Shown here in pieces: positions 32,799 to 63,154 of a stretch of DNA of 64,000 nucleotides. Each line of letters begins with the position of its first letter. Within the stretch, counting starts at the first letter, position 1. The notes under the pieces are model-generated. The model saw nothing but the letters and a program-made list of their open reading frames with translations. It did no database searches and was not told where the DNA came from. Location of the stretch: IMG/VR virus record IMGVR_UViG_3300042393_000799, one strand, 5' to 3'. The DNA is from a virus. Both the position numbers and the translations under genes were made by a program.

Positions 32799-32799
32799 G

Positions 32800-38002: not shown

Positions 38003-38005
38003 ATG

Positions 38006-38170: not shown

Positions 38171-38171
38171 A

Positions 38172-38495
38172 TTAATAAGCTTTAGATTTTAAAATAGTTT
38201 CAATTTGATCGATGAAATCCCCGGCATAAGTTTTGCCACCAACATTAAATTGTGTCAATCTGGTTTCAGTATATTCTCTTGAATATGTTTTCCAATCATA
38301 AATTGTAAAAATACTATCTTCAAATTCAACAACCCATTCTACTTGAGTTTTGTCATCACCCGAAGGTGTATTATGAGTAGGTTCTCCAAGTGCTTCAATT
38401 AATTGACTATAAGTTGCACTAATGTAACCTTTAAGAGATGAGCCATTTGACTCGTTGATTGCATCTTCTTGACTAAGTACTTTAAATTTTTTCAT
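38172..38495 (-). CDS. hypothetical protein (N-terminus MKKFKVL..INE weakly family-like)
   Basis: 107-aa ORF preceded by cassette. Confidence 0.4.
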   Translation of the reverse strand: MKKFKVLSQEDAINESNGSSLKGYISATYSQLIEALGEPTHNTPSGDDKTQVEWVVEFEDSIFTIYDWKTYSREYTETRLTQFNVGGKTYAGDFIDQIETILKSKAY

Positions 38496-38507
38496 ATTGT
38501 TTATCTT

Positions 38508-38588
38508 TTAATTATAAGGCTAATATACATAAAAAAAGCCAAACAAAAAAATGTTTGACTGATTATTTTTTAAAAAGTTACGAACATT
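38508..38588 (-). promoter_or_regulatory. repeated intergenic cassette
   Basis: ttaattataaggctaatatacat...agccaaacaaaaaaatgtttgact...ttattttttaaaaagttacgaacattt. Confidence 0.65.
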
Positions 38589-38856
38589 TGCAGATTTTAA
38601 TGTTAATGTCTTTAAGGAATTCGTGTATTTTAAAAAGTGATGGTTTTGCGTTCTCATGTTCTAATGTAAACCACCAACCTTTACCTTCACTATCAGTGAT
38701 ACTTATGGTACCCGATATAAATTCATATATCCTTTCTACTGTAATATTCTGCATTACAGTTTGACCATATTGATCTTTAACATGAAGCGCATCATTGTCT
38801 TTAACTAATTTAAGACAATCTCCTTCGTAATTTATAAGTCCTAATGTATTTTTCAT
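38578..38856 (-). CDS. hypothetical small protein
   Basis: 92-aa ORF (start overlaps cassette end; true start may be internal). Confidence 0.3.
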   Translation of the reverse strand: MKNTLGLINYEGDCLKLVKDNDALHVKDQYGQTVMQNITVERIYEFISGTISITDSEGKGWWFTLEHENAKPSLFKIHEFLKDINIKICKCS

Positions 38857-38857
38857 A

Positions 38858-39334
38858 TTATTCTACGTCTTTTAATTCTGTTCTTAATCTACCAATTGCA
38901 CCTTCTAAAGTATTATAGACTGGAATGTTGTGTCGACTGCAAACTATATCTACATTTCCTTTGCGCCAAAATTCATCTGGACAACAAACAATCATTTTTT
39001 CAGATGCAGCATGCATACCAAGTTCTAATAAACTGATTGGACTCTTGGTTTCTGGAGAAAAGTACATGAAAATAATATCGCATTCATCTAACTTATTCAT
39101 TTCCCAATTTACTTGTCCACTGAATTGTGGATTAGATTCTTTTTGTTCCCATGAACTATCCCAATCATCTCTACGAGGATTGAAAAAAACCAAGTTTTGA
39201 CGATCTTTAAATAATTCAGGAATTACTGCTTGCCAATCTTCTGCTTTTCCCATTTCAATAGAACCTGCTAAAAATATTTTAACATGATGATCGTTATAAT
39301 ATGCATTTTTTGGTTCTGGTTTAATTACTTCCAT
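38858..39334 (-). CDS. nucleoside 2-deoxyribosyltransferase-like protein
   Basis: IFLAGSI...FNP...ECDIIFMYF...SLLELGMHAASEKMIVCCPD pattern of the family. Confidence 0.5.
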   Translation of the reverse strand: MEVIKPEPKNAYYNDHHVKIFLAGSIEMGKAEDWQAVIPELFKDRQNLVFFNPRRDDWDSSWEQKESNPQFSGQVNWEMNKLDECDIIFMYFSPETKSPISLLELGMHAASEKMIVCCPDEFWRKGNVDIVCSRHNIPVYNTLEGAIGRLRTELKDVE

Positions 39335-39593
39335 TTTCTTTGTGTATTGAATTTTTACAATTTCCTTTATGGGATCCCCATTGAGTATTACCCATTCCGA
39401 CTACAATATATTCACAACCTTCAAGAGTGTAGACTCTATAATTTTGATCAGAGTATTGTGAATTACTATCAAGTTCCATTCGATGCGGATTCGGTTGAGT
39501 TGAAACTTGTACATTACCTTCGCAGCTTGTAACCACAAAGGCTACAAGCGCTGCAAAGATTAATATTAATAATGTTACATTTTTTCTGTTCAT
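39321..39593 (-). CDS. small lipoprotein
   Basis: signal peptide + lipobox VTSC. Confidence 0.45.
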   Translation of the reverse strand: MNRKNVTLLILIFAALVAFVVTSCEGNVQVSTQPNPHRMELDSNSQYSDQNYRVYTLEGCEYIVVGMGNTQWGSHKGNCKNSIHKENGSN

Positions 39594-41173
39594 TATGAAT
39601 TAGTTAAACGTTCACGAATTTCTGTTAGTGTAGTTTGGTTTTCGAATTGGCCATCTTTATAGATAGTTTTTAATTTACCAGTGGCTTCATTTTCCCAAGT
39701 ACATTGATCTTCTAATAAGAAACATGTTTCGTCTCCGGCAACTCTTAATAAACCTTTTGCAGATTTCTTAATACCGTCATCAGTGATTGGATCTTTAAAG
39801 ATTTCACGACCTGTGATGATTTCTTCTGAATGTGTATAGTTACCATTCTCGTCTTTAACAGTTCTAAAATGTTCTTTAACTTCAACATAAGTTGCTTTCA
39901 TTGCAAAACCAAAAGTATCTCTAGTGTTATATTGGTATGTAAAACTTCCAACGCCTAATACAATATTTGTACTTGCGAAACCTTTTGCTTCTAATCTTGT
40001 AAAGATTTGTTCTGCACGATCTAACGTTATTGAATCTCCGTAGATTGCTCCAATATGAGAATCAAGAACTTTGTAACCTTGTTCATTGATAGTTCCACCG
40101 AATACATCCCAAAGTAATTCAATAACTCCTTTTACTTCTGGTTTGTTTAAATATTCATCGGTAGGATTAACTTCTGCTACTCCACCTAAGTAAGCAACCA
40201 CATCATTATCATGGTGCGCGTTTGTTTTAATAACACTTGCGCCGCAAATAATATCTACTGGATCACCAGAGTCGGGTCTAATAACTACCTTACCATCACG
40301 AGCTAAAATCTCTTCTTTCAAGGTAACAATATGTTCAGTACAAACTTTCCATAAGTCCCAAGTATCTGATACGATTGAAAGAATTCCTGTTGGATATGTT
40401 TCCATCAAGTTTCTAAATGTTCCAACCTCATCTTCTTTAGATCCAGCACACATAACTGAGTGTTCAGTTGCATTCACAGATCCAGCAACAAATCCAGTTT
40501 CTCCATAGAATTTACGAGCTCCAAAGATTGCTGGTAAACTGTCTGAACCTGAGAAACTTGTTAAGTGACCCAATCCTGAACTAATAGTTGCATCAATAGA
40601 ATCTAAACCTCTCATTGAAAAATCATGTGCTTGCCAATCTACGAACCAACCTTTTTCAGCATCGGTTTTTTCTTGCCATGATGTAAATAATTTACGGTAA
40701 GCATGTGCAATAGTTGCTGAAGTCATTGGTTTCCATAACAAGTTAGAAATAATTGTTTCTAAGTAGTTTGTAATCCAATAGAAATCTGGATGTGTATTGT
40801 AAATTGTCAATACAGGAACTCTCATTGGTACTAAAGAACCTTCTTCGATTGTTTTTACCACGATTGGTAAATAACCTAAATCATGTAATGCTTCAAAGTG
40901 ACTAACATCATAGTCAGTATTTAAGTACATTGACAATTCACGTTTCATTTCGCCGCAAACTTCATCTTTAGGTTTGCTAAAGAAATCTTTGTCAAATGCT
41001 TCGTGAATTTGTTTGATTACCATTTGTTGTCCAAATGATACTAATTGGTCGCATCCTTTAGGAGCATACTTATTACTTCTAGGTGTGAAGTTTGAATAAA
41101 CCAACGTTGTTCCTTTTGGATATTGTTGGTGATGTCCTGTTTTGTAACCGTCTGTTAAAAATAATGGGTTCAT
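39593..41173 (-). CDS. nadV: nicotinamide phosphoribosyltransferase-family enzyme (NadV/NAMPT, or the Namat variant)
   Basis: N-terminal signature LFLTDGYKTGHHQQYP and full-length (526 aa) similarity pattern to NAMPT. Confidence 0.82.
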   Translation of the reverse strand: MNPLFLTDGYKTGHHQQYPKGTTLVYSNFTPRSNKYAPKGCDQLVSFGQQMVIKQIHEAFDKDFFSKPKDEVCGEMKRELSMYLNTDYDVSHFEALHDLGYLPIVVKTIEEGSLVPMRVPVLTIYNTHPDFYWITNYLETIISNLLWKPMTSATIAHAYRKLFTSWQEKTDAEKGWFVDWQAHDFSMRGLDSIDATISSGLGHLTSFSGSDSLPAIFGARKFYGETGFVAGSVNATEHSVMCAGSKEDEVGTFRNLMETYPTGILSIVSDTWDLWKVCTEHIVTLKEEILARDGKVVIRPDSGDPVDIICGASVIKTNAHHDNDVVAYLGGVAEVNPTDEYLNKPEVKGVIELLWDVFGGTINEQGYKVLDSHIGAIYGDSITLDRAEQIFTRLEAKGFASTNIVLGVGSFTYQYNTRDTFGFAMKATYVEVKEHFRTVKDENGNYTHSEEIITGREIFKDPITDDGIKKSAKGLLRVAGDETCFLLEDQCTWENEATGKLKTIYKDGQFENQTTLTEIRERLTNS

Positions 41174-41186
41174 ATATTAATTGTTT

Positions 41187-41267
41187 TTAATTATAGAGTA
41201 AATATACATAAAAAACCTGACATAAAAAAATATCAGGTGATTTATTTTAAAAAAGTTATTAACAATC
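41187..41267 (-). promoter_or_regulatory. repeated intergenic cassette
   Basis: ttaattatagagtaaatatacat...acctgacataaaaaaatatcaggt...ttattttaaaaaagttattaacaatct. Confidence 0.65.
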
Positions 41268-41717
41268 TACAAGATTTGCTAAAACACTCTTAACTATACC
41301 GATTTCTGCACGACCTTGGTATCTTTTGTTAAATTCGCCAATAGTTTTACCTTGTAATGCTTGTGGATTTGTAACTATTCCACTAAATTCTTGCATAATT
41401 TCTGTAAGAGCATCTACAATTTCTTGAGGTTCCATTTGTGCTGGCATATATCTTCTTAAGATTGCACACTCTTCTGATTCTTTTTTAGACAATTCTGGTC
41501 TATTTGCCAAATCATACATTTTAATGGATTCCTCACGTTGCTTGATTCCTTTATTAATTATTTTAATAACCTCTTCATTCGTTGCAACCCAAGTTCCATT
41601 TCCCTTTTCAGCATTCGTGATTGCTGCTTTAATACTATTAAGTGCCATTTTGGCTACTTCGTCTTTTGCTTTCATTGCAGTTATAAAGTCTGCATTTATT
41701 TGTTCTCTAATTATCAT
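41259..41717 (-). CDS. YqeY/GatB-domain protein
   Basis: REQINADFITAMKAKD...LRRYMP pattern of YqeY family. Confidence 0.6.
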   Translation of the reverse strand: MIIREQINADFITAMKAKDEVAKMALNSIKAAITNAEKGNGTWVATNEEVIKIINKGIKQREESIKMYDLANRPELSKKESEECAILRRYMPAQMEPQEIVDALTEIMQEFSGIVTNPQALQGKTIGEFNKRYQGRAEIGIVKSVLANLVDC

Positions 41718-42552
41718 TGTCTATGTTTTTAGTTGGGTTTATTAATCCTTTAATGAACCATCTGTCTTGTGTAAATGTTGGAGTTTCTACAACTTGCCAT
41801 TTGTTTCTCATTACAATTTGAGTAGGGTCTATTACATGTGTTTCACCATCATTAATAAACTCTTTGGTTTTTACAAGTACTGGAACTTCCACCTTTGCAA
41901 TTACTGCACCTCGTTTTAGACGAAAATCATAGTCATTCCAATTGATTCCTTTTTGGAAGATCAATTCTTGCATGTCACTTGTTTTTTTACCATGTAATTC
42001 TTTAGTACTATAAAGACTTTGAGCAACTGAAGAAATTGAATTTCTTACAGCGTCTTGTTGTCTCCAGATAAAATAGTTTTCTACCTCATCAATAAATGGA
42101 ATTTGAAATGCTCTTGCGTCGAATTCAGCCATTTTGAATTTTTCAATATGTTCCGGTTCTAAAAAGATCATGCTATTTTTCATGTATCTCATTAACCTAA
42201 GTTTATTGAATTCTGCAGTGGCCATAGAAGCAGCAACTGATACCATTTTTTGTAGGTTGTTGTCAAACCAAGCGTGAGTTCCTAGGTCATCAAAGTCTGT
42301 TAGAACTAAACTAATCTCATCTGATTGTACATAACCAAATTTAGCACCTTGAATGTTTTTACATAAATATGCAGTAGTTGCATTCATGTCTTCAATAAGT
42401 CCTTGGTCAAATGGTCTCTCTAATCCTTTCGTATAGGTGTGAAAGGCTTTTCCGTCAATACGGATAATTGTAAATGTTCTCCTTGGGAGTTTGATTCTAG
42501 TTCTATCTTCGTAGAACTCTTTCATGCGATCGCCTAATGCATCGTTTTTCAT
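41707..42552 (-). CDS. Thg1-like 3'-5' nucleotidyltransferase (tRNA-His guanylyltransferase family)
   Basis: family motifs RIDGKAFHTYTKGL and GYVQSDEISLVL (cf. Thg1 RLDGRNFH / AYGQSDEYSF). Confidence 0.75.
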   Translation of the reverse strand: MKNDALGDRMKEFYEDRTRIKLPRRTFTIIRIDGKAFHTYTKGLERPFDQGLIEDMNATTAYLCKNIQGAKFGYVQSDEISLVLTDFDDLGTHAWFDNNLQKMVSVAASMATAEFNKLRLMRYMKNSMIFLEPEHIEKFKMAEFDARAFQIPFIDEVENYFIWRQQDAVRNSISSVAQSLYSTKELHGKKTSDMQELIFQKGINWNDYDFRLKRGAVIAKVEVPVLVKTKEFINDGETHVIDPTQIVMRNKWQVVETPTFTQDRWFIKGLINPTKNIDNDN

Positions 42553-42629
42553 AATATATGTTATTGTGCAACCGTCGTTAGTTGGATGCTGGTTATAAGT
42601 ATTATATTAAATACTTTTATTTTGTTTCA

Positions 42630-43205
42630 CTATTTTAAAGTGATTTGCAAAGTTGCTTGATATGCCGAATGTTTAAATGGATCCCCTTCAGTTTCTCTAG
42701 AAGCTCCGGCAAATAATTCTCTTGCTCTTTCAATACCATGATATTTCATGATTAGTGTTGCTGCAGATGGAACTGTTATAGGCATCTTTTCTCCATGCTC
42801 TTCGATAATTTTATCAACTTCAATTTTGATTTGTTCAACAAAGGTTGGTTTCAATCTATCCAAAGACTCTTCTAACATTTCAGAGAAGCATGTACCACCA
42901 TTATAGAATTGTCCCATAAATGAAAGGCTTCCGTCGCTATTTCTAGTAACATTCATAAAGTATTCTGAATCTTCAGATTCTACATGATCGATAACTCTAT
43001 AAAGTTTCTCTCCATAGATAAAATACTCTTCCTTTTGACTGTTTCTTTTATTAGAGTACTCGTCAAAAGCATCCATAAAATCTTCTTGCCAATCCTCGCC
43101 TAATTCAACATCAAATCGTTTTGCAATACTTCTACAAGTCTCTTCTAAACTTTTCTCAATTTTGACTGGATATAATTTTCCGGTATGAAATTCTGTTCTA
43201 CTCAT
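42630..43205 (-). CDS. hypothetical protein
   Basis: 191-aa ORF. Confidence 0.4.
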   Translation of the reverse strand: MSRTEFHTGKLYPVKIEKSLEETCRSIAKRFDVELGEDWQEDFMDAFDEYSNKRNSQKEEYFIYGEKLYRVIDHVESEDSEYFMNVTRNSDGSLSFMGQFYNGGTCFSEMLEESLDRLKPTFVEQIKIEVDKIIEEHGEKMPITVPSAATLIMKYHGIERARELFAGASRETEGDPFKHSAYQATLQITLK

Positions 43206-43357
43206 CTTCGTCTTTATTAAAATCCGTTATTTTTACTAAAATATAAAATGGAACTATAATTGCATAAAATTCCCATTGGTACCAGCTGATATTTGCAAAT
43301 GCTGATAGAGCAAATCCTAAATATGATGGTGCTAATAATTCTACTAATCTTTTCATA

Positions 43358-43642
43358 TTAAATTACTTTAAATTCTGTTCTACTAATTCTTTCAGTGCTT
43401 CCTCCGTGTTCAGTTGCAAGTCTTCTATCTAATGCTTCAATAAAATACTGTTGTGCTCTATTGTCTGGTCTAGTATCTGGATCGATAAATCTTAAAAACA
43501 TATCAACTTGCTCTGGTCTATAACCTCTCATGAATTTTTGATTGAATATTTCAAAGTTTGTTAAAATTTTAATATATCCATGTTCAAATAAATATTGAAC
43601 TGCAGCATCTACTAATCTTGTAGTTTTACCTGATTGTCTCAT
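43358..43642 (-). CDS. mini P-loop protein (Walker A at residues 4-9)
   Basis: MRQSGKTTRLVD; stop codon immediately upstream in frame so start is genuine. Confidence 0.35.
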   Translation of the reverse strand: MRQSGKTTRLVDAAVQYLFEHGYIKILTNFEIFNQKFMRGYRPEQVDMFLRFIDPDTRPDNRAQQYFIEALDRRLATEHGGSTERISRTEFKVI

Positions 43643-44138
43643 TTCTTAATTGATTTTTTACAAGAGTTAATGCTTGTCCTAAAAGATTTAAACCTAACCA
43701 ATATGATGGATCATCAATTCCTTCGGCATTTTCATCAAGACCAATTCCCCAAATATTATCTAATGGAGAAGCCTCTACAAAGATACGATCACCAGTATTT
43801 AACATTTCTTCTCTTAATCCAGCATTTTGTCTGAATTTTGCCAAGTTTCCTTCATAAACAATTGCCAAACAATTTTTATCCCAAGTTGCTTTATCAAAGT
43901 TTTGGATTTGTCTACCATATTTCTTTTGCTCTCTTGGATTCGTTTCCTCCATAATCAAACTTGCTACAATATCATCTCCAAATAATAATGCCTTTTGATG
44001 CATCATATATTGTTCACATGAATTATATTCAATCTTGTCAATTGTCATTGGAGCTTTATGCCATTGTGAGTAAATTCCATTCCAGAAAAATACATGTTTA
44101 TCTGTTACTTTCATATTATTTGTTTTTAAATTGTTCAA
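43626..44138 (-). CDS. NADAR-domain protein (YbiA-like ADP-ribose/N-glycosidase superfamily)
   Basis: FFW...SQW...EYNSCEQYMMHQKALLF...GRQIQNFD..W...KF.QN..L...LLNTG...VEASP.DNIWGIG. Confidence 0.75.
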   Translation of the reverse strand: MNNLKTNNMKVTDKHVFFWNGIYSQWHKAPMTIDKIEYNSCEQYMMHQKALLFGDDIVASLIMEETNPREQKKYGRQIQNFDKATWDKNCLAIVYEGNLAKFRQNAGLREEMLNTGDRIFVEASPLDNIWGIGLDENAEGIDDPSYWLGLNLLGQALTLVKNQLRNETIR

Positions 44139-44328
44139 GATTTTTTACCTTTTCTCTGAAACTTTCTAAAACTTCATATTCGGTTGTTTGTTTTAATAAT
44201 GAAATGGCTTTTTCTAAAGCATTGTCCTTTTCTATATTAACAACTACTTCATTATCAATTGAAGCTTTAAATGAAACTAATTTAGAACCTTTTCCTAAAA
44301 TTATTCCTTCTGGTGAAGATTGTGACAT
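44116..44328 (-). CDS. hypothetical small protein
   Basis: 70-aa ORF. Confidence 0.3.
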   Translation of the reverse strand: MSQSSPEGIILGKGSKLVSFKASIDNEVVVNIEKDNALEKAISLLKQTTEYEVLESFREKVKNLEQFKNK

Positions 44329-44331
44329 ATT

Positions 44332-44826
44332 CTATTTGTTTAAAATTCTTATTGCTCTATTTGTGCATTCTTTAGTTAATCCATAACCAATATCGATACA
44401 ATCTGGATGATTAATATTGGTCGATGTTTGTACAAAGTTCATTCGTTGACTCTTTAACATATCCGTGTCATCATCAAGAATAACGTAATTAGTTATTTCA
44501 GGTTGTCTATCGAGAATTGACTGTATTTCATCTCCACGAACCATTTCTGGGCCACCTTCTAAATCATGGTTCCATCTAAGATCTGGTGTAATTCCAATTA
44601 TTTCTCCAGGATATTGACGTTGTTTCCACATTCTATGTAGTCTTTCCAATCCCATGTGTCTCCATGAAGAACTAATAACTAATTTTGCTCCGGTTTCATC
44701 AATGATTCTACCTAGATTTTCTACAAATTCAGGATGGAATATTCCACCGAAATCATCATGTCCTTGAGGAATTACATTTAATACACCGTCAAAATCTAGA
44801 AAAATAACCTTCATCTTATTTAACAA
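44332..44826 (-). CDS. HAD-superfamily phosphatase of the RNA-repair-associated (HAD_SAK/PNKP-like) type
   Basis: VIFLDFDGVLN at N-terminus; small single-domain HAD. Confidence 0.5.
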   Translation of the reverse strand: MLNKMKVIFLDFDGVLNVIPQGHDDFGGIFHPEFVENLGRIIDETGAKLVISSSWRHMGLERLHRMWKQRQYPGEIIGITPDLRWNHDLEGGPEMVRGDEIQSILDRQPEITNYVILDDDTDMLKSQRMNFVQTSTNINHPDCIDIGYGLTKECTNRAIRILNK

Positions 44827-45029
44827 CTACCGAATCTATAAGATTGAAATCCGCCTTCTTCGCTTGGATGAAATCCTAATTCATCTAATCTTTTCGTGTC
44901 CTCTTCGGATACATCTTCTTCGTCAATGTGACAAACATAAAGAACATCATGTTCGCAATGAGTAGGCCATTTTTGTTCAGGATCCATGTATTTAGCTAAT
45001 ATGATTAGCGCTTCTATTAAATCTTTCAT
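44820..45029 (-). CDS. hypothetical small protein
   Basis: 69-aa ORF. Confidence 0.3.
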   Translation of the reverse strand: MKDLIEALIILAKYMDPEQKWPTHCEHDVLYVCHIDEEDVSEEDTKRLDELGFHPSEEGGFQSYRFGSC

Positions 45030-45032
45030 TTC

Positions 45033-45596
45033 TTATGGTTTATAAATTACTACCGACACTTTCATGTCTTTTAATTCTGTTTGAATAATCCTTTTAATTC
45101 TATTCCAATCTCCACCTGCTAATCCTGCTCCAATCTTTGGCAATCCAATATGTTTACCTTCAAATTGAAAATTGATCTTACGCATACAAAGAGTTAATGC
45201 CTCATAATCTAAAGGTTTTGAAACTCCATCGGTATGATTCTTACCATATCTGAATTGAGTGTATGAATTTACAACTGATAATTCAGGTTCATTCCTTTTA
45301 TTATCGGCGTCTTCTAAAGACCAGATTGTATTTTGACCAATGACGAATGTTTGCCAATCGATACATCCGAGCTTTTCAATGGTTGCTCCCCAAGTTTCCA
45401 TTTCAAAACGGTCAACTCCAAACGCTTTTGCCATTTGCGGTGCTATTCCAGCTCCCATATTTGACAAGCAATTACAACCATGTGTAATTACATCAAACTT
45501 TCCCTGTTTTGCTAGTGCAATTAAATCACCTTCTATTTCTTGATAATTTGTATCAACATCTATCATCGATTTCATAAATTTGTTTAATTCTCCCAT
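45033..45596 (-). CDS. Macro-domain (ADP-ribose-binding/processing) protein
   Basis: ITHGCNCLSNMGAGIA and GLPKIGAGLAGG blocks. Confidence 0.65.
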   Translation of the reverse strand: MGELNKFMKSMIDVDTNYQEIEGDLIALAKQGKFDVITHGCNCLSNMGAGIAPQMAKAFGVDRFEMETWGATIEKLGCIDWQTFVIGQNTIWSLEDADNKRNEPELSVVNSYTQFRYGKNHTDGVSKPLDYEALTLCMRKINFQFEGKHIGLPKIGAGLAGGDWNRIKRIIQTELKDMKVSVVIYKP

Positions 45597-46093
45597 TATG
45601 CTAGTCTAAATCGTTTTAAAAATTCTCTTAAGAAAATGATCTGATCTGCTTCCTTTTCTGTTTCAGCAAATTTCATCTTCCATTCATAATAATCCATTTC
45701 GATTGGTGTTGTACCATCTATATAATATGGACCAACATAATCAGGCCAGTGGGTTTTGTCAAATGCTCTGTCATCAACTAAGAAAACTACAGCTGTCATT
45801 TGATCACCCAAATCTGGCTCATGAAATTCTCCAACTTTAATACCTCGATCTGTTAATTCAAAATAGTTTTGCTGAAGAGTTCCTAATCTCATGCTACTGT
45901 CATTAGTAGTTCCACCATTTAAAATAATAAATGTTTTGTCTATTTTCGCCCATTCTTGGTATTCTGGAGTATTAAAGAAGTCAAGTCCATATTCTACAAC
46001 AGCATGTCCAAATTGGATACCTTGTTGGATTGGGCTTAAATTATAAGGCACCAATCCATACATTCGATATTCTCTATTGTAAATAGATTCCAT
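45596..46093 (-). CDS. possible PTH2-like (peptidyl-tRNA hydrolase 2 / DUF2000-like) protein, tentative
   Basis: LVPYNLSPIQQGIQFGHAVV resembles PTH2 GKIAAQxxHA core. Confidence 0.3.
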   Translation of the reverse strand: MESIYNREYRMYGLVPYNLSPIQQGIQFGHAVVEYGLDFFNTPEYQEWAKIDKTFIILNGGTTNDSSMRLGTLQQNYFELTDRGIKVGEFHEPDLGDQMTAVVFLVDDRAFDKTHWPDYVGPYYIDGTTPIEMDYYEWKMKFAETEKEADQIIFLREFLKRFRLA

Positions 46094-46228
46094 TACTCTG
46101 CTTCCTCGTTTTCAGATTCTTCTACTTCAACTTCTCTTAATTCATATCTTGAACCTAAGATTGGATCGTGTACTAGTACAATAACTTCTTGTACTTGCTT
46201 TTCTACTGCTTTTGCTTTTTTAGCCATC

Positions 46229-46444
46229 TTATATTAAATTTAATTGTGTTAGTTCTTCAATGGCAGCATCGAATGCTTCTTGCCATGTTCTGTATAAATA
46301 CCAATCTCTTACTTCAATTTTTTCATAGTTACCAAAGTGTTCATATTTGTATATGTCAAATGCAAACTTTGGAGCACTTGTACGGTCTACTTCTATTTCT
46401 ATAACGTAACCATGCTGTGTAAATAAAGAATCTATTGTATACAT
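46229..46444 (-). CDS. hypothetical small protein
   Basis: 71-aa ORF. Confidence 0.3.
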   Translation of the reverse strand: MYTIDSLFTQHGYVIEIEVDRTSAPKFAFDIYKYEHFGNYEKIEVRDWYLYRTWQEAFDAAIEELTQLNLI

Positions 46445-47376
46445 TATATTACTTTAAATGCAGTTGTGTTTGTTTTTACATCATATTCATTATCAGCAAT
46501 ATCTCTATGAGAATTTGTTGTGTAAATACGTTCGAAATATTTGTTTAGCTCTGTAAAACCAGCACTAAATATTCCATGAGTAACTACTAAATAAATTTTA
46601 GCACTTGGTCTGCTTGCTTTAATAGCTTTAGCTAATTCAATAAAAGTTCTACCACCATCACAAATATCATCAATGATTACATATTTCATATCATCATTAA
46701 CTGAGTTAGGGTCTCCGATAGATCCTGGTAAGTTTGGTACTTCTGTTTTAAGAATGTTACCAGTTCTCATATCTCTAACTTTGTTTGCCGTAACAATATT
46801 TTGGATTTGAAACTTCTTAGCAACATCAAAGATTTTCTTGTATGCACCAGCATCTGGGCTTACTAAACAAATTCTTTCTTGAGCATCTCTCTTATTATCA
46901 ATATCTGTAAGTGCATATTTAACTACTGTATGATTATCTGTTTTCTCATAGTTATTTAAACATGCTTCTAAAACATCTGAATGTGGATCCAATGTAATTA
47001 CTGTTATGAAGTTTAAAGAGTTAATGATTGGACAAATAACTTGTTTCAAATAGTTAACACCACCGTCAACAAATTTACGATCTGAACGAGCTCCCATGAA
47101 GTATGGAACGTAAAGTGCGATTTCTCGATTTGGTTTAATATTTCTGATTGCTGCTGTTGCACAAATAATTAATTCTAAGTCCTTAAAACTATTTAAACGT
47201 GAACTGATTTTTACAGCATCTTCATATATCATTAAGTCATTCCAATCAATAAGGTCTACTGTTTGTTGACCATCTGGAAATTGACTAATTTTGTATTTAA
47301 TGTCTGATTTTTCTGGATTAACTAAGTCTAATGTTATCATCTTTAAGTTGTTTTTAATTATATGTAAATATACCAA
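46444..47376 (-). CDS. prs: ribose-phosphate pyrophosphokinase-family enzyme (Prs, or the ADPR-pyrophosphokinase Adps variant)
   Basis: PYFMGARSDRK, TLDPHS, VSPDAGAYKK, PRTase motif VIIDDICDGGRTF. Confidence 0.8.
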   Translation of the reverse strand: MVYLHIIKNNLKMITLDLVNPEKSDIKYKISQFPDGQQTVDLIDWNDLMIYEDAVKISSRLNSFKDLELIICATAAIRNIKPNREIALYVPYFMGARSDRKFVDGGVNYLKQVICPIINSLNFITVITLDPHSDVLEACLNNYEKTDNHTVVKYALTDIDNKRDAQERICLVSPDAGAYKKIFDVAKKFQIQNIVTANKVRDMRTGNILKTEVPNLPGSIGDPNSVNDDMKYVIIDDICDGGRTFIELAKAIKASRPSAKIYLVVTHGIFSAGFTELNKYFERIYTTNSHRDIADNEYDVKTNTTAFKVI

Positions 47377-48257: not shown

Positions 48258-48491
48258 TTATACTTTAAAAAGGTGACATGCATTAACTGATCGTCTACGT
48301 AATTCTGGTTTAAAAGATTCTGTGATTTCTCCCCAAAGACCTCTGCGCTCTTCAACATTAGTTAAAGTTGCTTTTAGTTCATTAATCTTTTCAACTGTTC
48401 CTACGACTATTGTAACATGTCCATTACTTTGTTGTGAATATCCGTAACGTTGTCCAATTTCAATTGGATTTCCTAGTGCATCTGTTGTCAT
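48258..48491 (-). CDS. hypothetical small protein (start moved to Met48 of track ORF 48258-48632 to remove 137-nt overlap)
   Basis: ATG at 48489-48491 lies 4 nt after stop of gene 48496-49035. Confidence 0.3.
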   Translation of the reverse strand: MTTDALGNPIEIGQRYGYSQQSNGHVTIVVGTVEKINELKATLTNVEERRGLWGEITESFKPELRRRSVNACHLFKV

Positions 48492-48495
48492 AATT

Positions 48496-49035
48496 TTATT
48501 TGTTATCGTTTCTAGTCCATTCAATTCTAGGACAATATTTATTATATGACGCTTTAACGAAAGATACAAGGATTGAATCTTGTTTTGGTTTAGGATTCCA
48601 GATTCTATAACCATTTTCGTCATATTTAACACCTCGATTTTCCCATTTCTCTACCAGAACTTTGAATAACTCAATACCTCCAACTATAATTCCAACAGCC
48701 CATCCAATACCACCTACAGTTAACATAAACATGAAAAAAGAATCTTTAGTTGGAATTACCCAAATTAAACCAACATAAGATAACATGCATATAATCATGC
48801 CTAAAATAAACCAGATTAAGAATCCGAATCCTGCTCTTTCTCCGGTTGAATTCTTATCGTTTGTATTTGTTAATTCCATTAAAATAATTGGAAGTGCAAG
48901 AATCGAATATGGAATTATAAGAATCCACATTAAGATTAATTTCCAAAAGTATGGACATAATGATTCTGGCATGTTTTGAGTTGCATAGAACCATCTGTAC
49001 AACCTTGATGTTTTTGAATTGATATTTAATTTCAT
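48496..49035 (-). CDS. multi-pass membrane protein
   Basis: 179 aa, several hydrophobic helices. Confidence 0.4.
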   Translation of the reverse strand: MKLNINSKTSRLYRWFYATQNMPESLCPYFWKLILMWILIIPYSILALPIILMELTNTNDKNSTGERAGFGFLIWFILGMIICMLSYVGLIWVIPTKDSFFMFMLTVGGIGWAVGIIVGGIELFKVLVEKWENRGVKYDENGYRIWNPKPKQDSILVSFVKASYNKYCPRIEWTRNDNK

Positions 49036-49039: not shown

Positions 49040-49450
49040 TTATTTGTTAATGATTACTGTGAATTTTTTATCTGAGCCTAAGATTAAATCATCAACATAA
49101 GCTTGTGCTGCTTCAGTAGATTCAAAGTTAACACCGAAAGATTGTTTATATCCTAAACGTATTTCAACATGTGCTCTACTACAAACTTTTTTATTTACAT
49201 CATCTACTCGGTACCATTTGTAATCATCAAAATATGAAGATTGTTTTCGGTTCCATGGTCGGTATTCATTTCCATCATCGTCAATATATTCATTCCAACC
49301 TGCAGGAATTGCTTCAGTCATTCCGTATTTAATTCCCATGAATGATTTTTCTTTTGCTGGAATTTCAGGAAACCATCGGTAACTTGATTCTCTTTCGCCA
49401 GTTAATGTAATTGAATCTACTTTGTCCAATTCGAAATAGTGTTTTTTCAT
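49040..49450 (-). CDS. hypothetical protein
   Basis: 136-aa ORF. Confidence 0.4.
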   Translation of the reverse strand: MKKHYFELDKVDSITLTGERESSYRWFPEIPAKEKSFMGIKYGMTEAIPAGWNEYIDDDGNEYRPWNRKQSSYFDDYKWYRVDDVNKKVCSRAHVEIRLGYKQSFGVNFESTEAAQAYVDDLILGSDKKFTVIINK

Positions 49451-49542
49451 CTTTATTTTTTATTTTTAAATTGTTCTATAATACAAAATCTTATAAATAA
49501 ACCTACTGCAATTCCAATCAGGCCAAATACAATTTCTCTCAT

Positions 49543-50088
49543 TTATTTTTCTTTACGGGGTTCAACAAATAATTCTTGTAATGTACAGAATAACTCATAG
49601 TTAGGGTCTGTAACATCTCCAAACCATCCAAGTTCTTGAATGAAGTCTGAGTTTTCTTTCTTATACATTTCAAACATTCTACTTCCAGTCATTTTGGAAT
49701 ATTGAACGTTTGCAATACGGTCACATAGTTTTACGAATGTTGCACCTGGAGTTTGACGAATTCCTTTGTAATAAGTTGTGTTTGCACGTTCTTTACGTGT
49801 TTTACCTTTCTCATTAGAAACTGCATAAATAATATCGGCAGCTTCTTGTCCTAATTGATCTTTTACATCGTTATAAGAAACACGAGTATCTTCAATAAGG
49901 TCATGTCCCCAAGCTGCCAAAAGCACCGATCCTCTAAATGAAGTTTCTCCATCATTTGTATCAGGTATTGCTTTAATAAATTCTTGAGCAACATTTGAAA
50001 CCATTCTCAAATGAAATTCATAAGGAAGATACGTATCATACATGTGATTTGTATCTTTATGTTGTTTTAAAATCCAATCTATTTTCAT
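49543..50088 (-). CDS. HD-domain hydrolase of the RelA/SpoT (small alarmone hydrolase, MESH1-like) type
   Basis: AAWGHDLIEDT matches the HDxxED metal-binding motif of Rel/Spo hydrolase domains; 181 aa single-domain. Confidence 0.55.
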   Translation of the reverse strand: MKIDWILKQHKDTNHMYDTYLPYEFHLRMVSNVAQEFIKAIPDTNDGETSFRGSVLLAAWGHDLIEDTRVSYNDVKDQLGQEAADIIYAVSNEKGKTRKERANTTYYKGIRQTPGATFVKLCDRIANVQYSKMTGSRMFEMYKKENSDFIQELGWFGDVTDPNYELFCTLQELFVEPRKEK

Positions 50089-50089: not shown

Positions 50090-50335
50090 TTAATAGGTAT
50101 TAGTGATTTGTCTTGTTAATATCTCTGAATCGCCTTCTTGTGATTCGATTCCTAGTGAGATTGATTTACCATAAGCTCTTACTCTAATTTCATCTTCATT
50201 TTCGTCGAAGTAGAATCTTACGAAACCTGCACCAGTTGCCTTTTCATTATAACCAACCATATCTTTGTGTTGGATTGCTGCTGAGAATATGATTGCACAT
50301 CCATCAACAATTACGTATTTTGCTGGATTTAACAT
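50090..50335 (-). CDS. hypothetical small protein
   Basis: 81-aa ORF. Confidence 0.35.
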   Translation of the reverse strand: MLNPAKYVIVDGCAIIFSAAIQHKDMVGYNEKATGAGFVRFYFDENEDEIRVRAYGKSISLGIESQEGDSEILTRQITNTY

Positions 50336-52729: not shown

Positions 52730-53374
52730 TTACCAATTTTTCTTGTAATGCACATCATCAACCCATGAGAATAAACGTGTCTCTTCAACATCATGCAAGA
52801 TAATAGTCTTATCAGTTACTTTGTCATTATAGAAATATTCATAATTAAATAAAGCGACATCCAGATCCATTTTTTCAATAATCTTATTATTGAATGTTTT
52901 ACATCCATGAGCCCATGTAATTCTATCATAAACACTAAGACATTCATTTATGATTCTACTTTGAGGTGTAGATCCATAAACTGTACAATCAATAAGAGTA
53001 TTGTGTTCTTGAGTTGGTTTCATACCTGCAAAGAATGTATGTTCTTCTGAGAGTTGATCCAATATTATATCAAATGGTCTAATTGGTTTTGCATCTATAT
53101 CACAATAAATACCTCCAAAATCTCTAAGTAATAATAACCTAACTCTATCGGCAATAAAAGCCCATTTATAAATTTCAGGTTCTTTTACATAGTTTTGTAA
53201 AAATGGATCATCTTTGTACAAATCATTGAAAATATCATCATGACTCCATAACTTATATTCCCAATCTGGATGCATTGCTTGCATCTCTTCTCCAAATCTT
53301 TTGCACCAATCTGGTACTTCTTTATAGCCAATCCAAACTTGATGTAGTTTCTTTGGTATTTTATTTACTGTCAT
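52730..53374 (-). CDS. DxD glycosyltransferase (GT32/OCH1-like 'Gly_transf_sug')
   Basis: KIPKKLHQVWIG N-terminal motif and CDIDAKP DxD motif. Confidence 0.55.
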   Translation of the reverse strand: MTVNKIPKKLHQVWIGYKEVPDWCKRFGEEMQAMHPDWEYKLWSHDDIFNDLYKDDPFLQNYVKEPEIYKWAFIADRVRLLLLRDFGGIYCDIDAKPIRPFDIILDQLSEEHTFFAGMKPTQEHNTLIDCTVYGSTPQSRIINECLSVYDRITWAHGCKTFNNKIIEKMDLDVALFNYEYFYNDKVTDKTIILHDVEETRLFSWVDDVHYKKNW

Positions 53375-53597: not shown

Positions 53598-54185
53598 TTA
53601 TTTTATATATTTAAATAGATTTAATACCTCTGGGCACTCAAATCTTTCTGGGTGCCATTGAACTGCAATGATTTTAAGTGCTTCGTCTTCTATAGCTTCT
53701 GGAATCCAACCACCATCAAAAGACATATGTGTCACTTTAAAATTATCTGCAATAATTGAGCACCATTGATGATGCCTAGAATTAACTTCAAACATTACAT
53801 CGTCTAAGTTTTTGATGTAATGAAATTGTGATTCTCTTTCACTATGATCTTCATCATCTGAGAATTCATCACTTTGATGATATTCTACTATTCTGTCTTT
53901 TAGATCTTCTACCTTGCCACCAAAATAGTGATTCAATATTTGCATGCCACGACAAACACCAATGATTGGTTGTTTGGCATCAATTGCCATTTTTATCCAA
54001 TTAAGTTCACGCGTATCTCGATCTACATTTATACCAATATCTGCACCACCGCAAAGTATAAGAGGAGCATCGATCCTTTTGTATCTAAGATCTATCATAA
54101 CAGGTTCATAACCCTTTGATATAATCCAATCAATATATGCCTTTCCTTCTATTTCACCTTTCGGTGGTGCAACAAATACCTTCAA
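53598..54185 (-). CDS. class I glutamine amidotransferase-like / peptidase C26 (gamma-glutamyl hydrolase-type)
   Basis: catalytic-Cys motif GVCRGMQ and IAVQWHPE. Confidence 0.7.
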   Translation of the reverse strand: MKVFVAPPKGEIEGKAYIDWIISKGYEPVMIDLRYKRIDAPLILCGGADIGINVDRDTRELNWIKMAIDAKQPIIGVCRGMQILNHYFGGKVEDLKDRIVEYHQSDEFSDDEDHSERESQFHYIKNLDDVMFEVNSRHHQWCSIIADNFKVTHMSFDGGWIPEAIEDEALKIIAVQWHPERFECPEVLNLFKYIK

Positions 54186-54664: not shown

Positions 54665-55957
54665 TTAAAAATCTCTTTTTGTTTCGTAAATAGCTTTTAT
54701 AGTTGGAAATCTCAAACTAGTTCCACCGTTTTGGTTGTGAGTTTCTTCGAAATATTGAACAGTGACTTGTTTGCCGATAATATCATTAGGATTGTTGTAA
54801 TAATGACGTCTCTGTTCATGATTAAAACCACTACCAACTTGAACACGATATCCTTTATGTTCAATAATAATATTTTTCAACATTAATTCAGAAACTTCTG
54901 AACCATCAACAATAACTCGCTGTATATCGTTTTCAACATCTACAACAATATACTCTGCATCATGAAATGATTTTACTTTAAGAACCTCATCAGATCTCTT
55001 ACCTTTGTAAGTTGTATTCTTACGTAACATAAGTCCTTCCCATCCTTCATTTTTGGAATGCTCTAATAAACTAGCAAACATATCGTCTGCACATATGAAT
55101 TGATCTAAGACTGAAATACCTACTAAATCATTTGGAACAATGCTTTCAATGTTTGCAATACGTTGACCAAATTTAGTAGTTGAAACTTTAGATTCAAATT
55201 CTTTGATTGTTAAGTGGTCAAAGATATAATAATGTGGTTTCTCAATTGTGTAATCTTTACGCTTGATCTCTTTCATAATACTTGTGAAATCTTCGTTTCC
55301 ATTTGCATCTACAATACAAATCTCACCATCTAATACTGTATTAATAAGACCAAGTTGTCTAATTGAAGGTTTAAGATTATCAAGTGTTAAGAATTCATTT
55401 CCTACACGAGAATAAAATCTAGGTTCACCTTGTCCATCGATAATACATACACATCGACATCCATCTAATTTACGACTAACAAACCAACCATCTGACCATT
55501 TAACTTTCTTTTGAGTTTTTTCATCATATGCTTTTGCTAATGCAACATCAAATGTAGGAATTAAATTAGGGATTGCAGTATTAATCATGGATGCTGTAGC
55601 TCTTGTTTTAAGATTACGATCAATGATATTAAAGATTAGCTCCTCGGATTCAGGATATGTGCCAACAAACGCATTGACTGCTTGAATAGCGGAGTGGCCA
55701 GTAATATAACGAATACTAAGGTCATCGAGCAAACTAAAAAGATCGTTATACACGTTTTCTGAAGCAACCAAGTCGCTACGTTTTTTACAAGTTTCTGAAG
55801 TAACATAATATTGTTTAAAAGTATTGTATGTATACTCGAGTACTTTACGAATTGCTGGATTATTAGCATACGCCTTTAATACATTCAATTTGTCAGTATT
55901 ACTATTTGTAGAATTTTGAGCATCTACGAACTCTTGTATTTGTTTTAAATCTTGCAT
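54665..55957 (-). CDS. ATP-dependent DNA ligase
   Basis: nucleotidyltransferase motif I KLDGCR, motif III DGEICIVD, motif IV EGLMLRK, motif V LKVK. Confidence 0.75.
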   Translation of the reverse strand: MQDLKQIQEFVDAQNSTNSNTDKLNVLKAYANNPAIRKVLEYTYNTFKQYYVTSETCKKRSDLVASENVYNDLFSLLDDLSIRYITGHSAIQAVNAFVGTYPESEELIFNIIDRNLKTRATASMINTAIPNLIPTFDVALAKAYDEKTQKKVKWSDGWFVSRKLDGCRCVCIIDGQGEPRFYSRVGNEFLTLDNLKPSIRQLGLINTVLDGEICIVDANGNEDFTSIMKEIKRKDYTIEKPHYYIFDHLTIKEFESKVSTTKFGQRIANIESIVPNDLVGISVLDQFICADDMFASLLEHSKNEGWEGLMLRKNTTYKGKRSDEVLKVKSFHDAEYIVVDVENDIQRVIVDGSEVSELMLKNIIIEHKGYRVQVGSGFNHEQRRHYYNNPNDIIGKQVTVQYFEETHNQNGGTSLRFPTIKAIYETKRDF

Positions 55958-59211: not shown

Positions 59212-61842
59212 ATGTCATTAACTCCAAAAACAATAGGTCAATTAAATCCAATTGATCAAGTTACAGCTACTACATTATTTTTAGCTGAAAAAAATGGTGC
59301 TACAGTTCATGTACCATATTCTGAAATTGCAGGTGTAAACTACACAGAACTAACTTATGCTGAATTAACAGGATTAATATCAGTTGTTGGTTTAGTACCG
59401 GGTAACTTCTATATGATAACAGATTTCCAAACATGCTATGATCAACCTAATTTTGACTGGAATGGTAATGCTATCAGTAATGAAAACACATATAAAGTTG
59501 GTAATATTGAGTCATTAATGGTTTTGGCTTTAGCTGCAGATAGAATTTCATCAACAACTTATTCACCAGAATATCCTAAAGACAAAATTCAATATGACGT
59601 TACTTGGAATCAAACTGAGTTTACTAATAGTGGTGCTAAAGGTAGAATTACAGAAAGAATCGATGAAAGAAATAATAGAGCTGATTATGATTTTAGAAAT
59701 GTACAATTTATAAGACATGAAGCTTTAATGGCAGATTCTTATTATGAAGGTACTGTTAGTGTTGGAGAACCTTTTTTCGTGTATAATCCTGAAACACAAG
59801 AACAATTAATCGGACCTGATGGACCAATAATGCATGCAACAGTAACCGGAACTAATACTAGTTTTACAAATAGTTTCTATGTTGGTGATTATCTTGCTGT
59901 TTTTAACACAAATAATATCGGTTGTCATAACTTCTATGAAGTTGTTGGAATTGAAAATGATACAACAATGACTGTTGCTGGTATTTCATATGGTTGGGAA
60001 TATAACGCTACATATTCTAAAGGTTGGACAAAAGGTCTTAGAAGTCCATTTAAATGTAATGCACCATCTTTGCGTTTCAATTCTGAACAATTTTATACGT
60101 TTAATGATAACGATAGTAATAATACTTATTTAGGTGATAATAGAGACTATAATTCTTTTATTTTATCAAATAATGTTTTCTTAGACGGTACATATAATGA
60201 TAATTATTTTGGTGCTAATGTACAAAATAATACATTTGATGATGATATGGACGGTAACAGAATAGGTCTTTATTTCCAAAATAATATCATGACTGATGAT
60301 TTTGATAGAAACACCATTGGAAATTATTTTACAAATAACTGGATTGATTGTGATATGGCTAGAAATCAAATTGGTGATGGCTTTGAACATAATACTTTAG
60401 CTGATAATGATGGTTATGATTTTAGTAATAATGTTATACGAAATAATTTTAAATATAATTTCGTAACTATGTCAAACGGTGAGTTCATGAAAAATATCAT
60501 CAATGATGATTTTCAAAGAAACATAATAGACGATACATTTATAGCTAACACTATTGATTTTGATTTCGGTAATAACATTTGCCATGATACGTTTGAAAAC
60601 AATAGAATTGGAAATGCATTTAGAGAAAATAAAATCACAAACAATTTCGGTGATAATGTAATTGGTAATTATTTTATAGCTAATATATTAGAAGGTGGTG
60701 ATAATAACACCATCGGTAATAATTTTCAAAATAATACAATTGGATATGATTTTAGATTCAATACAATTGGTCATAATTTTACCAATAACACTATTGCATC
60801 AGACTTTGGATTTGGTTATGGTGAATCAAGAGGAAATGTAATTGGTAATTTCTTTACTGGTAATAACATTGGTGAATATTTTTATAGTAATCATATCGCT
60901 GATAACTTTAGTACTAATAATATCGGTCATTGGTTTCAAAATAATAAAGTTGATGTTGTTGGTTTATCTGGTGTGAATTTTAAAGAAAAACTTAATTCTA
61001 TAGCTACAGTTTCAATAAACATAGGAGAATCTACATATACTGATGGTGTTTATAATGTATACCAAACTGCTAACTATTCTGGTAGTGAAGGTACTGGTGC
61101 ACAATTTACAATTACAGTTTCTGGTGGCTCAATCACTAATATTGAAATAACTAATGGAGGTAACTTATATAATGTTTACAATATAATCGGAATTTCAATG
61201 GATCAAATTCCTGGAAGTACGCAAGATCTAAGTTTAGTTGTTAATACTCTTACAGCAATGCCTTTAGTTTATGAAACAATAAATTCTACTATTTTAAGAG
61301 GATTTGATACAATTGAAGGTAATGTTCCTATGATTAGTGTATTAAGCATGAGCGCAGGAGGAAATGGAGTTTATATTTCAAAAGACTATAAAGGACCTTT
61401 TGTTTTAGATGAAGGTGGAAACAACGGTGGAGGTGGAAACACTGGATCAGGTTCTTGGTACTTCTATACTGCTGAAGGAGCATTCACAGTTGGACCTCCT
61501 ACATCAGACGGTCAAGCGATATTTACAGATAATAACTCAGGTTCTGGAACTCTTTCAACATTTAATCCAAATAATAATACAGGAATTGACTATCTTAACT
61601 TTTGCTTAAAAGACAGCGCAGGTACTGATTATACAACTCAATTCACTGCTTTACAAAATAACGGTGGAACTATATCAGTTACACAAAATGGTAATACAGC
61701 AACTTACACTCTTATGTCAAACATGGCGTATGTTAATGCAGGTCCAGGTTTTATAAGTATTAACACTGCTGCAGCAACTCAAACTGTAACAGCAGCTTCA
61801 TCATTTGTATATGGTGATCCAATATCAATATCTTTTAGTTAA
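59212..61842 (+). CDS. repeat-rich (beta-helix-type) fibre/receptor-binding-like protein
   Basis: 876 aa; ~25 tandem 11-12-residue repeats of form N-x-I-G-N-x-F-x-x-N (e.g. DRNTIGNYFTNNWID, ENNRIGNAFRENKITNNFGDNVIGNYF); Gly/Asn/Thr-rich C-terminus. Confidence 0.55.
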   Translation: MSLTPKTIGQLNPIDQVTATTLFLAEKNGATVHVPYSEIAGVNYTELTYAELTGLISVVGLVPGNFYMITDFQTCYDQPNFDWNGNAISNENTYKVGNIESLMVLALAADRISSTTYSPEYPKDKIQYDVTWNQTEFTNSGAKGRITERIDERNNRADYDFRNVQFIRHEALMADSYYEGTVSVGEPFFVYNPETQEQLIGPDGPIMHATVTGTNTSFTNSFYVGDYLAVFNTNNIGCHNFYEVVGIENDTTMTVAGISYGWEYNATYSKGWTKGLRSPFKCNAPSLRFNSEQFYTFNDNDSNNTYLGDNRDYNSFILSNNVFLDGTYNDNYFGANVQNNTFDDDMDGNRIGLYFQNNIMTDDFDRNTIGNYFTNNWIDCDMARNQIGDGFEHNTLADNDGYDFSNNVIRNNFKYNFVTMSNGEFMKNIINDDFQRNIIDDTFIANTIDFDFGNNICHDTFENNRIGNAFRENKITNNFGDNVIGNYFIANILEGGDNNTIGNNFQNNTIGYDFRFNTIGHNFTNNTIASDFGFGYGESRGNVIGNFFTGNNIGEYFYSNHIADNFSTNNIGHWFQNNKVDVVGLSGVNFKEKLNSIATVSINIGESTYTDGVYNVYQTANYSGSEGTGAQFTITVSGGSITNIEITNGGNLYNVYNIIGISMDQIPGSTQDLSLVVNTLTAMPLVYETINSTILRGFDTIEGNVPMISVLSMSAGGNGVYISKDYKGPFVLDEGGNNGGGGNTGSGSWYFYTAEGAFTVGPPTSDGQAIFTDNNSGSGTLSTFNPNNNTGIDYLNFCLKDSAGTDYTTQFTALQNNGGTISVTQNGNTATYTLMSNMAYVNAGPGFISINTAAATQTVTAASSFVYGDPISISFS

Positions 61843-61889: not shown

Positions 61890-61891
61890 TG

Positions 61892-61965: not shown

Positions 61966-61969
61966 ATGG

Positions 61970-63147: not shown

Positions 63148-63154
63148 AATTTTG

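Follow-up and report, generated by a model that had tools for sequence, protein, structure and literature searches.

A divergent RelA/SpoT-type small alarmone hydrolase gene in an apparently large, uncultivated phage

Both alarmone signalling and toxic alarmone synthetases (CapRel, FaRel and PhRel, for example) are known to act against phages, and hydrolases carried by phages are an obvious counter-measure. Does the HD-domain protein encoded at positions 49543-50088 on the minus strand of the virus record IMGVR_UViG_3300042393_000799 (IMG/VR) belong to these hydrolases, and what could it do for the phage? The 64,000-nucleotide stretch that we analysed is referred to as the window. A preliminary description of the gene had proposed a stand-alone small alarmone hydrolase (SAH) of the RelA/SpoT homologue (RSH) type, which could lower (p)ppGpp in the host or neutralise toxic small alarmone synthetases (toxSAS). 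Stand-alone SAHs encoded by phages are already established, and this gene is a divergent further example that is well supported. Because the literature on phage SAHs already shows or proposes both roles, they are the published ones.

The gene opens with an ATG at 50088 and closes with a TAA at 49545-49543, the coordinates including the stop codon, and both the list of open reading frames (ORFs) and the translation gave a product of 181 residues. The plus-strand frame of the same interval contains many stops. A word-indexed protein search retrieved 2177 homologues at E ≤ 0.001, the top one being 95% identical over the full length, and identity was at least 65% throughout among the 120 matches listed. 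An exhaustive search found 3483 cluster representatives (clustered at 50% identity) at E ≤ 0.001, including 154 at E ≤ 1e-30. Given these 2177 homologues and 3483 representatives, the protein bearing the AAWGHDLIEDT motif is far beyond chance. The start codon is backed by full-length homologues of 181-183 residues. Comparison with three relatives gave 37, 42 and 44 codons with synonymous-only differences against 23, 39 and 41 codons with amino acid changes; synonymous differences were thus at least as frequent as replacements, indicating purifying selection. The region around the gene has a GC content of 0.314, the same as the remaining window, and the gene is therefore not a recent insertion. 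Gene direction is uniform for tens of kilobases around it and packing is tight, with an upstream ORF of 81 residues ending one base ahead of the hydrolase ATG. The AlphaFold2 (AF2) model of the protein has a pLDDT of 95.3 and consists of one compact, all-helical domain. Synthetase, TGS and ACT parts are absent, and the libraries returned only HD-type matches. The ORF, the translation, the model and these HD-only matches bear out the single-domain protein of the preliminary description.

To which HD family does the protein belong? Searched as a single sequence, it matched HD_4 (PF13328, the Rel/SpoT-type HD domain) best in Pfam, with 16.1 bits and an E-value of 0.0099, and the generic HD family with 15.4 bits. 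NCBIfam returned spoT_relA at 5.4e-7 across the HD segment, and PHROGs returned family 990, "metal-dependent phosphohydrolase", at 1.6e-22. These single-sequence library matches are weak yet consistent. In a phmmer search against the PDB, the best match was PaSAH from Pseudomonas aeruginosa (1.6e-9), followed by Drosophila and human Mesh1, Staphylococcus aureus and Bacillus subtilis Rel, SpoT and RelSeq, and no family besides RSH hydrolases was matched. We also aligned the protein with 81 diverse homologues, and all conservation counts below refer to these 82 sequences. With the profile of this alignment, the PDB search at E ≤ 0.01 returned 22 distinct sequences, all of them RSH hydrolase domains, and again PaSAH came out on top (6.7e-16, nearly full length). 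HD_4 was matched at E ≤ 0.01 by 46 of the 82 members (best 1.1e-9) and generic HD by 19; a rival specific HD family was matched by none of the 82 in the Pfam scan. The precomputed Pfam column was blank for all 120 homologues listed. The clade is large and under-detected by HD_4, and with thousands of metagenomic sequences lacking a precomputed Pfam domain, surveys based on HD_4 under-count it.

The fold comparison gave the same ranking. The top 45 Foldseek matches in the PDB were all RSH proteins. Fold scores were highest for PaSAH (17.6), human MESH1 (17.2), the Leptospira SAH (16.1) and Corynebacterium RelH (15.8), followed by the Treponema SAH (14.2), Aph1 (13.5) and SpoT (13.4). The first HD protein outside the RSH group, YpgQ, scored 10.4, and dNTPase-, nucleotidase- and HD-GYP-type proteins scored 7-9. 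The protein is therefore nearer to RSH hydrolases in sequence and fold than to any other HD family. The PDB matches by phmmer and profile, the fold ranking and the complete catalytic set support the RelA/SpoT-type assignment made earlier. We looked for non-Rel HD families, dNTPases among them, that would match better; none emerged from the Pfam, PDB profile or fold searches.

The conserved residues concentrate in a few motifs, whose positions are collected in Table 1. Invariant in all 82 sequences are Y17, Y23, H26, H62, D63, E66, G95, R98, K120, D123 and N127; D67, R101, R124, Y106, Y107, Y142 and E145 are nearly invariant. The counterparts of H26, the H62-D63 pair and D123 lie in the matching motifs of S. 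aureus Rel, Mesh1 and PaSAH, and the position altered in the PaSAH E74Q mutant structure 6z3o corresponds to E66. The KLCDRIAN segment aligns with "KLCDRITN" in PaSAH and "KLADRLHN" in S. aureus Rel (SaRel). From the structures of RelSeq and Mesh1, we assign to the aligned residues the roles of metal ligands, of the Glu-Asp pair for catalysis and of the Asn in contact with the ribose. The GKTRKER loop aligns with a K/R-rich segment of Mesh1 and Rel, and its phosphate-binding role is presumed. The residues predicted to be needed for catalysis are all present, and the metal-binding HDxxED signature of RelA/SpoT domains, named in the preliminary description, is conserved across the alignment.

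We consider it likely that the gene encodes an active, metal-dependent RSH 3'-pyrophosphohydrolase, a single-domain SAH that keeps the cell out of alarmone- or toxSAS-imposed arrest. Direct support comes from homology and fold, from an active site that is intact, from purifying selection and from the wide occurrence of the conserved gene in large phages; from these we infer that the enzyme is active, which metal and substrates it uses and how the phage would benefit. The enzyme would be expressed from the long co-directional block of small genes of a large AT-rich phage. H26, H62, D63 and D123 would hold the metal, probably Mn2+, and E66 together with D67 would activate a water molecule. The basic loop G95-R101, K120 and R124 would bind the phosphates, while N127 would contact the ribose. 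The enzyme would then remove the 3'-pyrophosphate from (p)ppGpp and/or (p)ppApp, quite possibly also from 3'-pyrophosphorylated tRNA, and the infected cell would escape the growth arrest. Several points weigh against this reading. The HD_4 score lies below the gathering cut-off of 27.2 bits, and identity to any characterised SAH is just 20-29%. The base-contacting loop, with its invariant Tyr17, is unlike that of the characterised enzymes. Moreover, no toxSAS gene or other partner adjoins the gene, and alarmone-based defence in the host is an assumption.

The closest functional precedents are the SAHs of the Salmonella phages SSU5 (PaSpo) and PVP-SE1 (PbcSpo), which neutralised all five toxSAS tested (Jimmy et al. 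2020, PMC7229694). It was proposed that incoming phages bypass alarmone-based defence through such hydrolases (PMC7229694). These enzymes are likewise phage-encoded and single-domain, without an adjacent toxin. The SSU5 enzyme, SSU5_099, is a detectable homologue of our protein (hhalign probability 97.5%, E-value 5e-12, 144 columns, about 20% identity), albeit BLASTP between the two aligned just the HD..ED segment. SSU5 and PVP-SE1 are enterobacterial phages of 100-145 kb, whereas the phage studied here is much larger, AT-rich and probably one of Bacteroidota. That very large phages carry an HD enzyme of the RSH type was also the idea behind the "HD-alarmone PDEase", which was listed among the counter-defence enzymes of jumbo phages and proposed to degrade alarmones of stringent-response-related immunity (Iyer et al. 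2021, PMC7824862). The example given there is BBI90576.1, whereas the PTm1 match to our protein is a different entry, BBI90623.1 ("phosphohydrolase"). In recent papers on phage genomes, SAHs are routinely annotated and their specificity is described as unpredictable (PMC12846349).

Among cellular enzymes, PaSAH (PA0431; 6YVC, 6Z3N, 6Z3O) shares 25-29% identity with the phage protein. PaSAH is chromosomal and has been connected with biofilm formation and with protecting its producer from the Tas1 toxin, while the protein described here is viral. MESH1/Mesh1, the metazoan SpoT homologue (5VXA, 3NQW, 3NR1), is about 20-22% identical, and the RRK ahead of its PY motif corresponds to NH.YD in the phage protein.

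Different, too, is the loop that contacts the base in the characterised enzymes. In Rel enzymes, an Arg six residues ahead of the PY tyrosine stacks on the guanine, and the (p)ppApp-specific Aph1 has Asp24 at this position; past its conserved Asn, Aph1 has Asp116 and Arg119 as further signature residues (PMC10083569). R96, K133 and Y134 also belong to the Aph1 signature. The family of the phage protein has Tyr17 there in all 82 sequences, and PaSAH has neither residue. The loop preceding the PY motif reads NHMYDTYLPY in the phage protein and NQTLSGSPLPY in PaSAH, leaving Tyr17 without a PaSAH counterpart. We located the positions equivalent to those of Aph1 by counting from the Asn and PY motifs that both have, so they are approximate: residue 129, corresponding to Aph1 D116, is variable (R in 19 sequences, Q in 16, E in 15, K in 10, also T), and residue 132, corresponding to R119, is K in 42 of the 82. 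Since the base-contacting loop differs from that of the characterised enzymes, the substrate preference is not readable from the sequence.

We considered membership of the Aph1 group separately. Aph1 from Bacteroides caccae (7SMG) is a tetramer of a compact 143-residue, eight-helix protein without a C-terminal helix (PMC10083569), whereas the phage protein has 181 residues and, in the AF2 model, helices at 137-152 and 164-172. Aph1 was not matched at E ≤ 0.01 by the family profile in the PDB search. We rejected membership on the absence of the D24/D116/R119 signature, the presence of the C-terminal helices and the lack of a profile match.

What kind of phage carries the gene, and in which host? 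A search for near-identical DNA with positions 48-52 kb of the window gave no match in 50,697 phage records; the phage has no close relative among sequenced isolates. The ATP-dependent ligase of the window is at most 31% identical to that of any isolate phage. Several features suggest that the window is part of a large phage, AT-rich and uncultivated: its small genes run in one direction, it has seven tRNA genes, and PHROG matches include nicotinamide phosphoribosyltransferase, phosphoribosyl pyrophosphate (PRPP) synthetase and the ATP-dependent ligase. Close syntenic relatives lie on a 183-kb metagenomic contig (L001), and further relatives occur on viral contigs of IMG/VR, of which many measure 170-373 kb. 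The nearest homologues in isolate phages, at 28-39% identity, belong to the jumbo Tenacibaculum phages PTm1, PTm5 and pT24; more distant ones come from Nodularia and Caulobacter phiCbK-like phages and usually bear the label "metal-dependent phosphohydrolase".

Cellular homologues, with about 37-55% identity among the 80 best loci, are concentrated in Bacteroidota (Kordia, Chitinophagaceae, Flavobacteriaceae, Salinivirgaceae and others) together with Nannocystis. Clustering the neighbours of these 80 bacterial loci revealed no conserved toxin or partner, just lineage-specific housekeeping genes. The concentration in Bacteroidota and the missing partner suggest a Bacteroidota host and an orphan-type SAH, and we infer both on these grounds. 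The host is probably a Bacteroidota bacterium, and the example thus comes from a large uncultivated phage lineage probably infecting this phylum. Bacteroidetes genomes have been reported to carry paSpo or pbcSpo2 (PMC3153485), and none of the genomes in the Atkinson 2011 supplements was among the loci that we fetched. Three contigs from the genome collection (L005, L007 and L069) are filed under a Methanobacterium metagenome-assembled genome (MAG; 170,662 bp) or under Candidatus Saccharibacteria MAGs. Their hydrolases share 60-66% identity with the phage protein, a level that no genuine chromosomal homologue reaches, and these are probably phage contigs mis-binned into the MAGs.

Next, we asked which genes accompany the hydrolase in related viruses. 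The SAH genes of 82 related viral loci formed 51 groups at 90% identity. Within 4 kb of the SAH gene, a CCA-adding-type nucleotidyltransferase head was found in 10 groups, a cREC domain in eight, an RNA ligase (PF09414) in seven and a calcineurin-like phosphoesterase in seven. The nucleotidyltransferase lay directly upstream of the SAH gene, across a gap of 26-161 nt, in four of the 51 groups, which resembles the nucleotidyltransferase head plus HD layout of bacterial CCA-adding enzymes. In a separate dereplication at 90% SAH identity, any of the four RNA-repair families occurred in 19 of 48 SAH-anchored groups, against 3 of 32 when an unrelated gene from this group of phages served as the anchor (odds ratio 6.3, Fisher p=0.004); the hidden Markov models (HMMs) for the neighbours were trained on the SAH loci, and the groups are not independent lineages. 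The control was a single anchor, window 26213-27304; an earlier one, 13485-15305, encoding a 606-residue protein, had no IMG/VR relative in the close-relative scan. The enrichment is suggestive, supporting a link to tRNA 3'-end repair and nothing further.

These neighbours bring up an alternative that we regard as unlikely, namely that the main job of the enzyme is RNA-end healing, in which it would clear blocked tRNA 3' ends for recharging or for rebuilding by a CCA-adding enzyme. The blocks would be 3'-pyrophosphates set by CapRel/FaRel2-type toxins, possibly 3'-phosphates or 2',3'-cyclic phosphates. Besides the enrichment and the upstream nucleotidyltransferases, one representative from the exhaustive search (P0203, 302 residues) carries the HD domain fused to a C-terminal cREC. 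However, it is one fusion among 150 representatives and could be a gene-calling artefact, and no further HD-cREC fusion was present among the 270 top-match proteins of both searches, including all 38 of at least 235 residues. Other fusions, an N-terminal DnaA-type helix-turn-helix ahead of the HD domain in P0191 (360 residues) and MORN repeats in P0259, give no clear functional lead; many more family members, of 236-372 residues, carry unannotated extensions.

The window itself speaks on both sides of this alternative. Downstream of the hydrolase by 3-12 kb runs a series of RNA/tRNA-repair and NAD/ADP-ribose genes (37295-47376, minus strand; Table 1), among them a Thg1-like polymerase, a HAD phosphatase and another phosphatase, NADAR and a phosphoesterase, which together with the seven tRNA genes would suit RNA healing. 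Yet a CCA-adding enzyme, cREC and an RNA ligase of these families, which we sought in the window after seeing them in L001, are not present there. Furthermore, with HMMs trained on SAH loci, one control anchor and accessory genes that cluster anyway, the enrichment may be unspecific, and the chromosomal homologues at the 80 bacterial loci have no RNA-repair neighbours. Biochemically, SAHs restored the aminoacylation of FaRel2-pyrophosphorylated tRNA, as found for MESH1 and ATfaRel (Kurata et al., bioRxiv 10.1101/2021.04.30.441581), and the authors of a later preprint state that they had earlier demonstrated removal of the FaRel2 tRNA modification by the SSU5 enzyme (bioRxiv 10.1101/2024.07.05.602228). 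SAHs acting on tRNA hydrolyse alarmones too, however, so that the two roles are compatible.

A more specific form of this idea, which we advance with low confidence, is that the SAH-like enzyme of these large phages is a dedicated component of tRNA 3'-end healing. Its partners would be the CCA-adding-type nucleotidyltransferase, cREC, the RNA ligase, the Thg1-like polymerase and HAD phosphatases. The enzyme would remove 3'-pyrophosphate or other blocks set on tRNA by host immunity, and the invariant Tyr17, standing where nucleotide-specific enzymes have a base-specific Arg or Asp, would stack on the terminal A76. If true, this would define an RNA-repair branch of RSH hydrolases. The distinct base-contacting residues and the repeated placement near tRNA-repair genes are a reason to ask whether some phage SAHs could be tuned to pyrophosphorylated tRNA instead of free alarmones.

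An NADP(H) 2'-phosphatase of the MESH1 kind, which would convert NADP(H) to NAD(H) and aid phage NAD+ salvage under host NAD+ depletion, is a doubtful candidate: the linkage to NAD genes is confined to close relatives and may reflect shared ancestry, nothing specific for NADPH recognition was seen, and the structural likeness to MESH1 is no greater than that to PaSAH. Least credible is another HD phosphohydrolase (a dNTP triphosphohydrolase, 5'-nucleotidase or cyclic-nucleotide phosphodiesterase) or a catalytically dead relic; the generic Pfam HD score nearly equals that of HD_4 for the single sequence and public phage annotations of homologues say just "metal-dependent phosphohydrolase", but the non-Rel families (dNTPase, YfbR-type nucleotidase, HD-GYP, other phosphodiesterases) were rejected on their clearly lower fold scores.

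A single-domain alarmone hydrolase acting against growth arrest thus remains our preferred explanation. Modestly new are the large sub-threshold clade, the base-contacting residues, which are distinct and include an invariant Tyr17, and the tendency of the gene to sit among tRNA-repair genes. Current understanding is extended by these observations, not changed.

Table 1. Positions of the hydrolase gene, its conserved motifs and the genes downstream of it
Feature	Position in window	Strand	Basis
Stand-alone RSH-type HD hydrolase (small alarmone hydrolase) gene, 181 residues	49543-50088	-	ORF, homologues, PDB sequence/profile matches, AF2 model, fold searches
His26 codon, predicted first metal ligand, PYxxH motif	50011-50013	-	82/82; aligns with "PYLVH" His (PaSAH) and "PYIMH" His (S. 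aureus Rel)
AAWGHDLIEDT, residues 58-68: predicted metal pair H62-D63, catalytic pair E66-D67	49885-49917	-	H62, D63, E66 82/82; D67 78/82
GKTRKER, residues 95-101: conserved basic loop, presumed phosphate-binding	49786-49806	-	G95, R98 82/82; R101 81/82
KLCDRIAN, residues 120-127: predicted last metal ligand D123, ribose-contacting N127	49708-49731	-	K120, D123, N127 82/82; R124 80/82
PRPP synthetase	46444-47376	-	
Hydrolase	45596-46093	-	
Phosphatase	45033-45596	-	
"Swiss army knife" HAD RNA-repair phosphatase	44332-44826	-	
NADAR	43626-44138	-	
Thg1-like tRNA-His guanylyltransferase / 3'-5' polymerase	41707-42552	-	
YqeY-like protein	41259-41717	-	
Nicotinamide phosphoribosyltransferase	39593-41173	-	
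Nucleoside 2-deoxyribosyltransferase-like protein	38858-39334	-	
Calcineurin-like phosphoesterase	37295-38002	-	

Thg1 is said to occur just sporadically in jumbo phages (PMC7824862). All seven tRNA genes of the window lie on the minus strand: Ala-TGC stands alone at 32799-32873, and Ile-GAT, Ser-GCT, His-GTG, Leu-TAG, Val-TAC and Lys-TTT are clustered at 61891-63781. The phage tRNA-His gene and the Thg1-like enzyme may be connected.

The immediate neighbours of the hydrolase are upstream ORFs of 81, 88 and 91 residues and, downstream, an ORF of 136 residues and a membrane protein of 179 residues, none with a family match that points to a function. Neither Pfam nor PHROGs matched a synthetase in the flanking genes, elsewhere in the window no exhaustive scan for this domain being made, and none of the 80 bacterial or 82 viral loci revealed a conserved synthetase neighbour. 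A type IV antitoxin of a toxSAS operon, as in ATfaRel, was rejected on the lack of an adjacent toxic small alarmone synthetase gene. The ORFs of 81 residues (50090-50335, minus strand) and 136 residues (49040-49450, minus strand) have no Pfam or PHROG match; they stay beside the hydrolase in 4 and 5 of the 51 related groups, respectively, which close relatedness may explain.

Right after the hydrolase stop begins a hydrophobic micro-ORF of 29 codons, MREIVFGLIGIAVGLFIRFCIIEQFKNKK (49453-49542, minus strand), which ends two bases (AG) ahead of the ATG of the next gene. A similar peptide is absent from all related loci that we fetched, and the micro-ORF may be due to chance; being unconserved, it was not counted within the feature. 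Further downstream, the minus-strand ORFs at 48258-48632 (GTG start, 124 residues) and 48496-49035 (the membrane protein, PHROG 944) have 137 bases in common. Since the former matches its PHROG from residue 49 onwards, its translation probably begins at a later codon than the listed GTG.

Four very large ORFs, 8585-11734, 13485-15305, 19285-22488 and 59212-61842, encode 1049, 606, 1067 and 876 residues, respectively, with no or marginal PHROG matches. Between the hydrolase and the ATP-dependent ligase (54665-55957), the minus strand encodes a DXD-motif glycosyltransferase (52730-53374) and a class-I glutamine amidotransferase / peptidase C26 protein (53598-54185).

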